Translations under genes and position numbers: made by a program
Part shown: positions 11,100-45,670 of the stretch, one piece after another
How positions within the stretch are numbered: the stretch's first letter is position 1
Layout of the letters: the number at the start of each line of letters is the position of its first letter
Notes under the pieces: generated by a model
The model's input: only the letters and a program-made list of their open reading frames with translations
Told to the model about the DNA's origin: nothing
Database searches by the model: none
IMG/VR virus record: IMGVR_UViG_3300033407_000020
Coordinates: 1 to 55,746 of that record
DNA length: 55,746 bases
Source of the DNA: a virus
Taxonomy: Duplodnaviria > Caudoviricetes
Strand: one strand, 5' to 3'

Positions 11100-12093
11100 T
11101 CATTGACCGAGCACCGTTTCGAGCATGGACTGCATCCGATGGTTGTAGGTGTGGTGGGCGAGCGTGTGCTCCCGGCCTGCCGCGGCGATCGCTGCCCGTT
11201 CGGGTTCGTTGGCGGGGTCGAGGTAGTAGCGGACAAGTCGGGCGAGCTCATCGAAGTCGCCGAGGTCGTAGCACGCGAGGTGCTCGCCTTCCTGCCAGAG
11301 CGGCCCATCGGTGACCCCTTCAACCCTCGGATGGATCAGGAAGCCGCCCCGACCCAATGTTTCAGGGATTCTATCACTCACATAAAGAGTGGCGCCGCCC
11401 GCCAGGCAGGAGTCACCGACGACGACCTTCACCGTCGCGTAGAGCGACCGCAGCCGGGCCTCACGGACCGCGGGCATTCGCACGCCCTGCTCGGTCACAC
11501 CAGGCAGGACCGCGAACCCTGCACCGACCGTGGCGCGCACCGTGTCGATGGCCTTCGTGCGGTACGGCTCCCACTCCTTGTGCGGGTACGGGTGCGACCC
11601 GACGAACACGACCTCATGCGGCCACGCCACCGGGTCCGGCACGCCAGGAGCGCAGTCGAACGCGCTCACACCGGGCGGCGACCAGTGATGGTTCACGCCA
11701 GCGGCCTTCCAGCGCTCGTCGTTCCCACCGTCCGGCGAGAAGAGGTGATCCGTGCGGAAGAACGCTTCGGACTCGATCTGGTACTCGCGGTCGAGGCCCC
11801 ACCAGCGGTCCAGGTGGAAGCTCACCGTGGGGATGCCGAGCACCCGCAGGTCGCGCAGGGCACGCACCGCGGCAGGGTTGTCGGTGTCCCACGTGCGCGT
11901 CCAGAGCAGCATCGTCGCCCGCCGTGCCCGCATCTGGCGGGGCAGCGACTGCCACTGGCGGCGCATCCGGTCCTCTTGGATCGTGATGACCTTGTGGCCC
12001 AGGTGCTCTAGCGCCTGGCGGACGTGGACCTCAGTGCAGAACGGGTGACGGAACCTAGAAGTTCCCAACGTAGAACAGGGTGTGGGGAACCAT
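11100..12093 (-). CDS. Glycosyltransferase (CgeB/Glyco_trans_1_2-like), interrupted by TAG and a frame change at 12057-12051
   Basis: VVFVGS, YR, YVSDRIPETLGRGG and HHTY..R motifs. The SD-led N-terminus MVPHTLFYVGNF is in a different frame from the body RHPFCTEVH. Confidence 0.85.
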
Positions 12094-12098
12094 GGGCA

Positions 12099-12170
12099 TC
12101 ACCTCCCGTGGCGACGCGGCGCGCGCGTCTTGGCTCGTGTCTCCTCGGAGACGGCGCGGTGTGTGCCCAT
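12099..12170 (-). CDS. 23-aa leader ORF coupled (TGATG) to the glycosyltransferase start
   Basis: MGTHRAVSEETRAKTRAPRRHGR. TAGGGT upstream. Resembles a NUMOD3 remnant. Confidence 0.35.
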   Translation of the reverse strand: MGTHRAVSEETRAKTRAPRRHGR

Positions 12171-12202
12171 CGAGCGCCGACCCTACTGCTAGCGCAGCGT
12201 GC

Positions 12203-12943
12203 TCAGGTGTATGCCCGACGCTCGCCCGGCGCGCGTGACGGCACGAACACCGTGGCACCACGTCGACCAGACCCGAACCGCGTCGACGCTATCCAGAGGT
12301 CGACCTCGGGGAGCCCGGTCATGCCCTCGGGGAACAGGGTCAGCGGGTCGATCACCGCGAGCGTGACGCCCTGCCGGGTGATCGTCGTGACCCGCTTCGG
12401 GAGGCGGCACTGGGAAGCCATCGCCGGGTCGCACGACAGGACGAGCTGGCAGGCAAGCGTCGCCGCCGACCAAATACCACCGATAGGCGGGGCCTGCCCG
12501 TACAGGTACTCGACGCTGAACGTGTCCTCCTCGGTGTCGGCACGGTCGAGGCGCTGGCATGACGGCCAGGACTGCCGCTCAGCCGAATCGGACTCGGGCA
12601 GGTAGACGAGCCAGCGGTGGTCGTCCACGCGGTAGCGCGCCGGGTCCACGACCACCCCGTCGATCTTCACTTCGACCACATCGACAACGGGGTGGCCGGG
12701 CAGTTCGATCATGCTCAGCGACCCGCAACCGCAGTCCTGCGGTGACCCGCACGAGCAGCACGGCCGGATCAGGTCTGTGCACTCACCGGGCCAGCGGCGC
12801 CCGGTCAGATCGAACAGGATGTCCGACGCCATCTGCAAACCGTCGGCGAGGAGCCCGGCGTCGATCACGTAGTCGTCGCAGGGGGCGCACAGGTCGCCCA
12901 CGTCGGCCCACGGCGCGCACGTGCTGACTCCGGGTGCGGTCAT
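12203..12943 (-). CDS. Head-to-tail adaptor
   Basis: ASDILFDLTGR, CRLPKRVTTITRQGVT and TGLPEVDLWI, as in cluster-B-like adaptors. Confidence 0.85.
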   Translation of the reverse strand: MTAPGVSTCAPWADVGDLCAPCDDYVIDAGLLADGLQMASDILFDLTGRRWPGECTDLIRPCCSCGSPQDCGCGSLSMIELPGHPVVDVVEVKIDGVVVDPARYRVDDHRWLVYLPESDSAERQSWPSCQRLDRADTEEDTFSVEYLYGQAPPIGGIWSAATLACQLVLSCDPAMASQCRLPKRVTTITRQGVTLAVIDPLTLFPEGMTGLPEVDLWIASTRFGSGRRGATVFVPSRAPGERRAYT

Positions 12944-12978
12944 GGCCCGATCCTACGATGCGCCAGCCTCCGTGCGCG

Positions 12979-13017
12979 GCACCGCCCCCGCTGAGGAGGG
13001 CTCGACGGGGGCGGTGC
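12979..13017 (-). terminator. GC-rich hairpin after the major tail gene
   Basis: 12-bp inverted repeat gcaccgcccccg/cgggggcggtgc. Confidence 0.7.
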
Positions 13018-43732: not shown

Positions 43733-44073
43733 TACTCGCCGGGCGCGTCCCGCAGTAGCGAAGCCTCGACGGCGCTGTCACTGTTATCGAGGCTCTTGCG
43801 TACGTCGTAACTAAAGGCCGCGGTGGAGCCGAGCACGAGCCCGGCCAGCACCACGCTGGCTGCGTCCATCGACCCGAGAGGAGTGCCCTCGAAGCCGGGC
43901 AACTCCAGGTTGGCGGTGACCGACGCCGCGCCCGCGAGGAACAGCACCGCCACGCCGACCGCCCAGGTCGCTGCCTGTGTCGCCACGTAGTTCGTGTCCT
44001 TGCCGATCGCCTTGACAACGCTGACGATCTTGATGACCGTGGCCGCTAGGGCCAGGAACCCGACTGTCTCCAT
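43732..44073 (-). CDS. Holin
   Basis: About 3 TM helices and a charged C-terminus. Lies in the lysis module. Confidence 0.7.
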   Translation of the reverse strand: METVGFLALAATVIKIVSVVKAIGKDTNYVATQAATWAVGVAVLFLAGAASVTANLELPGFEGTPLGSMDAASVVLAGLVLGSTAAFSYDVRKSLDNSDSAVEASLLRDAPGE

Positions 44074-44107
44074 GATGGTGTCTCGCTTTCTCCAGCTTGG
44101 CTGGCTT

Positions 44108-44545
44108 CTAACGTAGGCCGACGATCAGACCACCGACCGAGATGGCGACAGCGACCACTGCCACGAGGTAGCCCCATGAGGCGTCCATGCCGCGCGACTT
44201 CCCGGCGCTCAGATCGAGCCGCGAGTTGACGAGCGCCAGCGACTCACCGAACCGGGACTCCATCGCGGCGACCCGCTCTTCGATCTGGCTCTGGCGCTGC
44301 TCCGACTCCAGGCGAGGCATGAAGGTCGACGCCTGATCCGCCAGTTGAGCCCGGAACTCGTTGACCGCGTCGAACCGCTTCTCTGCCGCTACCTCGGCCT
44401 TGGCGACGGCCTCCTTGGCGGCGGTCAGTGCCGCGTTGACTGCCTTCTCCTGGTCGGCGAAGCGCTGCTGGTAGCGCAAGTCAGCCGCTTCTGCCAAGAG
44501 CTGCAGGTGCTCATGCAGTGTCTGGACGGTCCACTCACTGCTCAT
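44108..44545 (-). CDS. Coiled-coil protein with C-terminal TM (lysis-associated)
   Basis: EKAV.AAL.AAKEAV.KAE.A.EKRFD.VNEFR..L.DQ and a C-terminal anchor. Confidence 0.7.
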   Translation of the reverse strand: MSSEWTVQTLHEHLQLLAEAADLRYQQRFADQEKAVNAALTAAKEAVAKAEVAAEKRFDAVNEFRAQLADQASTFMPRLESEQRQSQIEERVAAMESRFGESLALVNSRLDLSAGKSRGMDASWGYLVAVVAVAISVGGLIVGLR

Positions 44546-44837
44546 CGCCGCGTCTCCACTCGTGACGTTCCGCCTCGTTGAACTTCCCCAGGTCGCGCTT
44601 CACCTTCACCGCCAGGACGCGGGCCTCTGCGACCTCGACACGCACCTCGGCCATCCCTGCCAGCACATCCTCGACAGCTGTAGCCAGGTCATCGACCTTG
44701 CTTACTAGGTTCGGTTCGTTCTTGCCGACGTGGTTCACGGCACGGTTAGCGGCCCGTGCCTGCACGTAGGCCGCGACTCCTGCGAGCGTTGGCCCGAGGG
44801 ATGCGATGGTGGCGACGATAACGATGTCTGCATCCAA
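44535..44837 (-). CDS. N-terminal TM coiled-coil protein (lysis-associated)
   Basis: Hydrophobic N-terminus. Follows the endolysin. Confidence 0.65.
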   Translation of the reverse strand: MDADIVIVATIASLGPTLAGVAAYVQARAANRAVNHVGKNEPNLVSKVDDLATAVEDVLAGMAEVRVEVAEARVLAVKVKRDLGKFNEAERHEWRRGDEQ

Positions 44838-44855
44838 TGTGGTCCTTTGGTCAGG

Positions 44856-45670
44856 TCACTTCAGCTGGGTCCGGCCACGTATCAGCGGCGCCCACGTCGC
44901 GAACGACAGCACGGCCTCCAGGCGCGGCACCCCGAGCGCATCGGCCAGCCGGTTCACGTCGGTGCGGCTCTTCATGTGCGTCATCTTGCCCGGCTCAAAT
45001 AGCCAGACCTCGGGGGTGCCGTCACAGCGGGCTAGGAACACGTCGGCCTCCAGATCGTCGGTGGATGGTGCAGGTGGGGTCTGCCCGGCCTCGTAGGCCA
45101 GGACGGCGGCGGGGATCGAGTCGCCCGCGAAGTAGTGCAGATGCCAGGGTTCTTTGGGGGCGACTAGATCTCCCATGACCACCCGAACCTCACGGCATTG
45201 ACGCGCAGCCACTCCAGCGTCGCAGCGTCGAACGGCTCGGCCCCAGCGTCGCCGTCGCGCTCTTCGCCGCCGTCCACGGCCTGCGCCCATCCGTGGTTCG
45301 ATGTGCCCGGCACTGCCGCCGTGGCGCCGTACCAGCGGTACCATCTGACGCCGTTCCAGACCTTCACGTCGGTGTTGGCCTTGTAGGCGGTGCGGTAGCG
45401 AGCACGGAAGATGCGTTCCTGCTCGGCGTAGGTCCGGTAGCTGTTCGACGCTGCCCCGGCCTTCAGGACGTGCCCGGCCTTGGCTGCCTCCGCGGCCATC
45501 GCCCCCCACGCTCGCGCTGCCGGGTGGATGAGCGTGATCGGCGCCCCGCCCGCCACCCCAGGGAGCGTCGTGAGGATGCCCGGTGAAAGCTGCCCGTTGC
45601 TCTGCCCGTTCAGCAGAGCGCTGCGCGTGATCGGAACGACGGGGAACGCCACGCCCGCAGGGTACGGCAC
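44856..45670 (-). CDS. Endolysin, M15 (VanY-like) peptidase, interrupted by TAG and a frame change at 45166-45162
   Basis: SYRTY..Q and PGTSNHGWAQAVD in frame 1. The catalytic EPWH motif is only in the second frame. Confidence 0.85.

Follow-up and report, generated by a model that had tools for sequence, protein, structure and literature searches.

Two TAG frame breaks in a metagenomic phage genome: a conserved split in a VanY-type lysin and a lone 7-nt insert in a glycosyltransferase gene

The virus record IMGVR_UViG_3300033407_000020 (Duplodnaviria; Caudoviricetes), from a soil metagenome, was analysed over its whole length of 55,746 nucleotides (nt), hereafter the window. The genome, of about 55.6 kb and 68% GC, is complete and either circular or permuted. 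Its ends share a direct terminal overlap of 127 bp (1-127 versus 55620-55746), as in a closed circle or a permuted genome, and the tape-measure gene spans the contig ends (1406-3 and 55744-53282). Nearly every gene lies on the minus strand. Two of them, which encode the endolysin (lysin A) and a glycosyltransferase (GT), are interrupted by an in-frame TAG followed by a change of frame. A first-pass annotation of the window had pointed to these two breaks and their shared context, and had proposed that one trans factor or ribosome state, acting through hairpins capped by CUAG, gates the expression of capsid, glycosylation and lysis genes. The lysin locus comprises the following features.

45167-45670, minus strand: N-part of lysin A, an open reading frame (ORF) of 168 amino acids (aa), VanY/peptidase M15, with the motif SNHGWAQAVD and the end WSWEI (PF02557, 40.2 bits, profile positions 5-108 of 132)
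45164-45166, minus strand: TAG ending the N-part, at the conserved Gln of [LIV]-Q-S-EPWH (from the alignment of homologs)
44856-45176, minus strand: C-part of lysin A, an ORF in the -1 frame beginning MGDLVAPKEPWHLHYFAGD..., 106 aa plus stop, with its ATG (45176-45174) 10 nt upstream of the TAG
45152-45158, minus strand: CCCAAAG, in phase as C_CCA_AAG with the N-part frame two codons past the TAG, and read P-K-E in the C-part frame

The N-part starts at GTG 45670 and ends TGG GAG ATC (45169-45167) TAG (45166-45164) TCG. From the last codon of its tail (..RFGWSWEI), the sequence runs ATC TAG TCG CCC CCA AAG AAC CCT GGC AT and continues as EPWHLHYFAGDSIPAAVLAYE.. in the -1 frame; the frame of the EPWH motif resumes from GTC 45164 and has its stop at 44856. 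Compared with intact relatives (..SWE-[LIV]-Q-S-EPWH..), the Gln codon is a TAG and 8 extra nt (CCCCCAAA) follow the Ser codon. The extra nucleotides number 5 or 8 depending on the alignment, and their flanks do not rebuild the consensus. The start of the C-part overlaps the conserved Ser-Trp codons (AUGGGAGAUCUAG). The one-chain arrangement of VanY/LAS peptidases is thus not found here, SNHGWAQAVD (H-x(6)-D) being encoded by the 168-aa ORF and EPWH by a separate ORF in the -1 frame.

Both products are identical across the JGI, ENA and Logan assemblies. Furthermore, a Logan contig of 3911 nt and depth 16, which covers 43664-47574 and probably comes from the source sample, hence is not independent of the reads, shows no difference from the window and no indel variant at the lysin break. 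Contigs from two further runs did not span this break. Assembly error was ruled out on these grounds as the origin of the breaks. The two TAG frame breaks, both on the minus strand, are therefore real and not sequencing noise, as the first-pass annotation had held.

Among the best 120 of the 192 homologs of the N-part, 112 are intact with an in-frame E.WH, one lacks the motif and seven, including the one studied here, end at a stop. All seven end after WE[LIV], at the Gln codon of intact relatives, and no other stop position occurs. This single shared position is unlike random nonsense or frameshift damage, which would scatter. In a quick maximum-likelihood (ML) tree, the seven stopped N-parts need four changes, at least two of which are forced by well-supported branches, and four of the seven group in a diverged clade in which the stop is retained.

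A word-index search with the C-part returned only itself, and an exhaustive phmmer search with its 106 aa then revealed a family. Of the 60 matches, 13 are other short ORFs (79-150 aa) that open just before EPWH, with starts such as MGDMVQPKEPWH, MGDLVRPQEPWH, MGSLVRPKEPWH, MGTLLHPKEPWH and MAGSVVHPKEPWH. Among cultured phages, the C-part had one weak match; the lysin has its closest cultured relatives among Microbacterium phages (48 records). A Met stands exactly 8 residues ahead of EPWH in nine of the 14 C-parts (this one included), as M-G-x-[LMIV]-.-.-P-., and the C-part studied here starts M-G-x-L-V-x-P-K-EPWH. All nine have L, M, I or V at residue 4, which is the NT[AG] set expected under an overlapping zero-frame stop. 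Residue 5 is compatible with such a stop in seven of the nine and, judging from the proteins, the stop must be TAG in six of these; Val (G-TC) or Glu (G-AG) at this residue is the outcome of a TAG followed by a Ser codon. In the split relatives, the zero frame would read [LIV]-TAG-Ser, colinear with [LIV]-Gln-Ser, and then 8 extra nt. For example, the 8 nt deduced for the split C-part P0274 (GNCCNGTN) have another sequence than those of this lysin and the same length. P0274 and the intact P0296 (274 aa, ..SHELVSEPWH..) are identical from EPWH on and fall in one 90% cluster, so that split and intact forms coexist among close kin. The 13 other C-parts are on different contigs from the six other truncated N-parts, and pairing on one contig is seen for this genome only. 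These six N-parts that stop after WE[LIV] and 13 C-parts that start about 8 residues before EPWH show that the split is a conserved trait of a VanY/M15 endolysin family, cut inside its catalytic domain.

The lysin is most likely encoded by two overlapping, translationally coupled ORFs, whose products would reassemble one domain. The ribosome would end the N-part at the UAG without any recoding, and the C-part would initiate at the AUG 10 nt upstream of it by termination-reinitiation coupling. The two chains would then rebuild a single active site, with the H and D zinc ligands provided by the N-part and the catalytic E and the third ligand H by the C-part. We infer both this coupling and this reassembly. 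In a complex model of the N-part with residues 1-50 of the C-part, ipSAE reached 0.78 against 0.00 for the best control, a mark attained by 58 of 80 solved complexes and by 2 of 110 mismatched pairs. Between runs, at least 74% of contacts agree and the partner pLDDT is at least 63; the modelled contacts join residues 9-25 of the C-part (EPWH..) to residues 125-135 (the H/D zinc motif) and 161-167 of the N-part. As the two parts are halves of one known fold, passing this mark shows likeness, not binding.

Several points weigh against this two-chain organization. About 78% of intact genes would have a start codon over Ser-Trp by chance alone (58 of 74: TCA, TCG, TCT or AGT), hence the presence of the C-part start is no sign of selection for separate initiation. 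The Shine-Dalgarno (SD)-like sequences ahead of the C-part are all poorly spaced (GGUGG at 2 nt, GAGG at 11 nt), and a zinc peptidase split ahead of its catalytic Glu and His is unusual. In the split relatives, the identity of the stop, the -1 frame and the 8-nt length come from protein sequences, and the tree is a quick ML version only. In addition, none of the 229 scorable lysin loci with DNA carries the break. The DNA searched consisted of the best 80 of 509 IMG/VR loci, 80 of 362 metagenome contigs and 80 of 402 GTDB genomes. Pooled, it gave 229 intact occurrences of the motif and 18 that were spurious or located at contig ends. The motif was missing from 3 loci, one of which (L084) proved intact when checked; the motif-bearing loci among the 80 from IMG/VR are all intact. 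Four pattern scans for split-lysin DNA gave 2 unrelated matches, none, none and 13 unrelated ones (ribonucleotide-reductase-like EPWH), and a search with the split C-part P0245 gave no related loci. Lastly, a +5 hop from AUC to the near-cognate GUC, yielding a fused lysin, would equally account for the conserved 8-nt length.

A fused lysin, reading WEI-x-S-PPK-EPWH, might also arise if the UAG were read through and the ribosome then shifted by -1 at C_CCA_AAG, which would impose a double recoding gate on lysis. The heptamer (45158-45152) lies 5 nt past the TAG in the exact phase required and has a single copy in the genome (one in the minus-strand sense, none on the plus strand), while X_XXY_YYZ heptamers (Y = A or T) number only 8 on the minus strand. 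The zero frame I-TAG-S is colinear with L-Q-S, and the Lys codon is here AAA, a rare codon in high-GC genomes. However, the heptamer is not conserved, P-K being present in just 6 of the 14 C-part leads. No tRNA gene, hence no suppressor, was found in the genome, and TAG is a working terminator that closes 22 of the 50 other minus-strand ORF ends listed, the following gene opening shortly after it in the inspected cases (e.g., 47826, 45694, 43734). Moreover, two inefficient events in series would leave very little enzyme. All this makes the double recoding highly improbable.

The same absence of tRNA genes and the normal use of TAG as terminator led to the rejection of a global recoding of TAG as Gln (code 15). 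Among the stops of the coding-like minus-strand ORFs, 26 of 52 are TAG, 24 TGA and one TAA, one ORF running off the contig end; such a share of about one half is high for a genome of 68% GC. In-frame TAGs at 47826, 47487 and 45694 were tried as further breaks and proved to be ordinary junctions of genes that share a frame, the one at 45694-45692 being merely the junction between a tail gene and the start of the lysin.

The second break lies in a GT gene with the following parts.

12058-12093, minus strand: first 12 codons of the GT (MVPHTLFYVGNF), with ATG 12093 behind the SD sequence GGGAGG (12107-12102)
12051-12057, minus strand: 7-nt insert TAGGTTC (equally TTCTAGG, 12054-12060), made of the in-frame TAG, a G and a second TTC
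11100-12050, minus strand: rest of the GT (Glyco_trans_1_2), in the +1 frame from CGT 12050 to TGA 11100 (Pfam PF13524, 66.5 bits)

The junction reads TTC (12060-12058) TAG (12057-12055) G TTC (12053-12051) CGT, and the homologous frame resumes in +1. It is open for 316 codons past the insert, and this remainder is 70% identical to its nearest homolog, P0002. When the 7 nt are left out of the aligned sequence (AAC TTC / TAGGTTC / CGT CAC CCG TTC TGC), the gene reads GNF-RH-PFCTE, the exact family consensus. Indeed, GNF precedes P[FW]CTE in 73 of the best 120 GT homologs (consensus start ..YVGNFxxP[FW]CTE), and the exact linker GNF-RH- is natural in 6 of the 120 listed. An alternative start at TTG 12068 has no SD sequence and would lose the conserved first strand; downstream starts called in homologs are a choice of the gene caller in at least one case (P0099 versus L165). 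The insert is missing in all 8 related IMG/VR loci, which are uninterrupted (at its position, L164 reads GGGAAC TTC AGT CGA CCG TGG TGC). Recurrence in relatives, which the first-pass annotation had proposed as a check, is found for the lysin, split in many of them, and in none of these 8 loci for the GT.

The GT shows the short insert with flanks adjacent in homologs that characterizes short-gap bypassing (GNF|RH, as in the 6 homologs). In both genes a slow codon comes straight after the take-off site, UAG after UUC in the GT and after AUC in the lysin. Take-off and landing codons are matched in the GT (UUC/UUC, resuming at CGU), whereas the lysin would pair AUC with GUC through a first-position G-U wobble. 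To give a full-length GT, the peptidyl-tRNA-Phe would have to leave UUC with UAG waiting in the A site and re-pair with the UUC located 7 nt downstream, a short "stop-hop" as in the phiHau3-type terminase gaps; the predicted junction peptide would be ..YVGNFRHPFCTE.. (YVGNFRHPFCTEVHVR). We regard such a bypass of the insert as a serious candidate, somewhat less likely than not. The chances that the GT was recently knocked out by the insert and is a dead gene appear about even. The insert is unique to this metagenomic genome and the gene is accessory, two other GTs being encoded at 8146-7388 and 7101-5911, so that a neutral knock-out is plausible. A +1 reading through the junction (YVGNF-x-FRHPF), with two extra residues, may also yield a product, and longer linkers compatible with it exist in the family (e.g., GNFQPGVSHPWSTE).

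Could both breaks simply be inactivating lesions, the GT being hit by a 7-nt insertion and the lysin decaying through a nonsense mutation at Gln and an 8-nt insertion, with lysis ensured by an unrecognised enzyme? The lysin can be read as carrying two lesions, no break is seen in the 229 lysin loci or the 8 GT loci with DNA, and the GT is accessory; a DUF1996 gene (42896-43732) and several unannotated ORFs are present in the lysis region. A scan against Pfam of five neighbouring ORFs of this region (45695-46405, 44538-44837, 44111-44545, 43735-44073 and 42896-43732) gave no second endolysin domain. Decay agrees poorly with the identical stop position in 7 of the 120 N-part matches and nowhere else, with its retention by the diverged clade of four, and with 13 other C-part ORFs that are open, conserved and preceded by the same 8-residue lead. 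In the same way, both downstream parts (102 and 316 codons) are intact and highly conserved, and the genome is complete, circular and covered at depth 16. Besides, a random 7-nt insertion would rarely combine an in-frame stop at its start with a repeat, at its end, of the codon before it (estimated at about 3/64 x 1/64). Inactivation of both genes therefore seems improbable.

Conversely, both genes might be decoded by one kind of UAG-triggered short bypass, +7 from UUC to UUC in the GT and +5 from AUC to GUC in the lysin. Fused proteins would be made, with a yield set by release factor 1 (RF1) or by the state of the ribosome, which would tie glycosylation and lysis to host physiology. At both breaks, a codon ending in UC is followed by an in-frame UAG and by a UC-ending codon in the resumed frame, and the NTC-TAG and the flanking (T)TC repeat described by the first-pass annotation are indeed present. 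The GT hop rebuilds the consensus exactly; a hop in the lysin would need the conserved 8-nt length and would give the junction peptide WSWEIAPKEPWH. For two split relatives (MGSLV...), the DNA deduced from the protein, GUC-UAG-UC, would allow a perfectly matched +5 hop. Precedents come from phiHau3 (PMC10732093) and from the stop-hops between matched codons around a stop described in E. coli (PMC5009743). The lysin fits less well. Its landing codon is merely near-cognate, relatives with MGSLA, MGTIE or MGEVN would have no matching landing codon, and G-UC after TAG is the automatic result of a TAG and the inherited Ser codon TCN of Q-S, for which selection is unnecessary. With WE-IAPK-EPWH, the fused lysin would exceed the intact WE-[LIV]QS-EPWH by one residue; the linker before EPWH has three residues in 68 of 74 distinct intact sequences, four in 5 and two in 1. 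Furthermore, spontaneous stop-hops are inefficient and no stimulatory structure stands out from chance. Stop hopping, one of the mechanisms raised by the first-pass annotation, thus stays live chiefly for the GT, where UUC-UUC over UAG-G rebuilds the consensus, and one bypass shared by both genes is unlikely. The same grade applies to its broader form, in which an actinophage endolysin family would keep a UAG and an 8-nt insert before EPWH and this GT an analogous UAG-led 7-nt gap, both being hopped; release-factor or ribosome state would then set when lysis and virion glycosylation occur.

The likeness of the two breaks in NTC-TAG-(N)TC is explained by ancestry, as the [LIV]-Q-S of the lysin reads ATC-TAG-TCG and the GT combines the Phe of GNF with the insert. 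Hairpins do not bring them closer. At the GT, the stem GGAACU/GGUUCC with loop UCUA has a free energy of -7.1 kcal/mol and a z of -0.31 against dinucleotide shuffles. At the lysin, the stem GGGAGA/UCGCCC has one mismatch, is not the minimum free energy (MFE) fold and has a z of -0.11. Ahead of the major capsid gene (start 16629), the intergenic region holds two further stems, with CUAG or CUA in the loop.

16716-16734, minus strand: stem CCCGU/ACGGG with a 9-nt loop, CACCUAGUC (z +0.18, at the level of chance)
16687-16704, minus strand: stem GCAC/GUGC, extendable with a bulge, with loop CUA (z -1.20; 28 of 200 shuffles fold equally well)

Genome-wide, CTAG stands in the loop of a perfect stem of at least 5 bp at 5 of 82 sites (6.1%), to be compared with 190 of 5000 random positions (3.8%) and with 0-5.6% for 11 other tetramers. 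Since both this rate and the shuffle z values are at background, the hairpin part of the shared context is no more than chance: stems do exist at the breaks, with a frequency and a stability at chance level. The link to the capsid reduces to the two intergenic stems of chance level; Rfam gave no match, and promoter and terminator scans of the capsid leader returned none either. The motif TCTAGGTTCC, with up to two mismatches, has 19 matches against 22.7 expected and is not a repeat.

Of the 20 other ORFs listed that end in TAG, a single one has NTC ahead of it, at 29763 (ATC-TAG-GGTTCC). This third NTC-TAG site (29761-29765, minus strand), GAC ATC TAG GGTTCCCGG, resembles the GT junction (TTC TAG GTTCCG). 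It closes a 92-aa ORF, and the next ORF (GTG 29750, 232 aa) is in the +1 frame, without SD sequence; neither ORF has homologs in phages or IMG/VR. At 27677-27679 (minus strand), the stop in ACA TGA CAC closes a 227-aa ORF and has ACA..ACA on its two sides at +5; the 61 codons that follow are open, and the context is probably due to chance. A genome-wide scan for such hop-like stop contexts was too permissive to inform.

A shared CUAG-hairpin regulon has no support, and no single trans factor is indicated for both breaks: the proposal that one such factor gates capsid, glycosylation and lysis is not supported, the breaks being different in kind. On balance, we favour the view that there is no such regulon and that a conserved split family, for the lysin, and a lone insert, for the GT, are two different things.

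The remaining genes, ordered from PHROGs and Pfam matches, are arranged around these loci as follows.

26071-24344, minus strand: large terminase
21505-19010, minus strand: portal
18980-17451, minus strand: MuF/protease-like
16846-17190, plus strand: small ORF (114 aa, no Pfam match)
16629-14728, minus strand: major capsid
13690-13052, minus strand: major tail
12943-12206, minus strand: head-tail adaptor
12093-11103, minus strand: broken GT, first gene of a sugar-modification cassette
10814-9321, minus strand: C-methyltransferase (PF08421/PF08484)
9444-8629, minus strand: O-methyltransferase, rhamnosyl O-methyltransferase-like (PF04989)
8146-7388 and 7101-5911, minus strand: further GTs of the cassette
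down to 45695, minus strand: tail genes, lysin A being next
44073-43735, minus strand: holin-like gene, after lysin A, with early genes beyond

The cassette (4777-12093, minus strand) gathers three GT-like genes, the C-methyltransferase and the O-methyltransferase-like gene between the head-tail adaptor and the tape measure, and looks like a virion glycosylation module. The lone plus-strand ORF, between the protease-like and capsid genes within the minus-strand late operon, may be a moron. The ORF 46405-47475 was considered as a capsid gene and rejected, as it encodes a tail protein and the capsid gene is that at 16629-14728. In the lysis region, a DUF1996 protein (153 bits) is encoded on the minus strand directly after the holin-like gene, at 42896-43732.

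Should the split lysin be functional as two chains, it would be a natural zinc peptidase active site assembled from two overlapping-frame products, and a new way for a phage to build or restrain its lysis enzyme; annotation pipelines now call one half a truncated carboxypeptidase and the other a "hypothetical protein". Bypass at either site would mean that utilised short-gap bypassing reaches stop codons and gene classes beyond the phiHau3-type terminases, and would offer a tractable 7-nt test case. UAG hops in both genes would parallel, with a stop codon, the UUA/bldA bypass that has been proposed for phiHau3. In either case, such breaks in metagenomic phage genomes should not be dismissed lightly as errors or pseudogenes.

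Short coding gaps in phiHau3-type terminase genes were reportedly proposed by Smith et al. in 2013. The first-pass annotation knew of no described system with the layout of these breaks; there is a precedent, as gaps of 7 and 10 nt in the large terminase genes of the Streptomyces phage phiHau3, the prophage StrepC.1 and an S. catenulae prophage are described and were tested by Antonov et al. 2023 (PMC10732093). According to the available text of this paper, bypass in phiHau3 is supported by tagged expression in Streptomyces and, in E. coli with UAA replacing UUA, by the detection of a bypass product with its junction peptide by mass spectrometry (PMC10732093). The phiHau3 record itself reads GGC-UUACUCC-GGU-AAG and UCU-UUAACGG-UCC-ACG. 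Like the GT, these are actinophage genes with frame-disrupting inserts of 7-10 nt whose flanks are adjacent in relatives, with a slow codon right after take-off and a matching or synonymous landing codon (GGC..GGU and UCU..UCC there, UUC..UUC here), and both genomes have two interruptions. However, the slow codon is there a bldA-dependent UUA instead of a UAG stop, the gene is a terminase instead of a virion-glycosylation GT and a lysin, and the gap between matched codons is 7 nt against 4 nt in the GT. The phiHau3-type bypass is supported by expression, whereas the present breaks are known from their sequence, with structure at the level of chance and a near-cognate landing codon in the lysin.

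In T4 gene 60, as in the GT, UAG comes directly after the take-off codon, take-off and landing codons are matched and a small stem-loop occurs at the take-off region; its 50-nt gap, nascent-peptide signal, defined 5' and take-off stem-loops and mobile cassette, as given in the available text (PMC5009743), have no counterpart seen here. In phages, the reassignment of TAG to Gln can act as a brake on late and lysis genes. Those phages likewise have an in-frame TAG at a Gln position of a lysis gene but, in the present genome, TAG terminates normally, there is no suppressor tRNA and the frame changes after the TAG. One literature search on split and multi-chain endolysins did not return the phrase "split endolysin" among its top-listed papers, and the announcement of a cluster BI genome mentions, in its available part, frameshifts close to the endolysin and holin genes that are predicted but unverified (PMC9671017). 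PlyC, encoded by two genes, and the two-polypeptide lysins made from internal starts resemble the split lysin in that one locus supplies two or more chains of an active lysin (PMC9430671, PMC7098653). As described in the available text of these papers, they separate whole domains (catalytic versus wall-binding) as nested in-frame or separate products, whereas here a single catalytic domain is cut before E-x-W-H and its halves are in overlapping, different frames. The closest known kind is the short-gap bypass of actinophage terminases for the GT and the multi-chain endolysins for the lysin.

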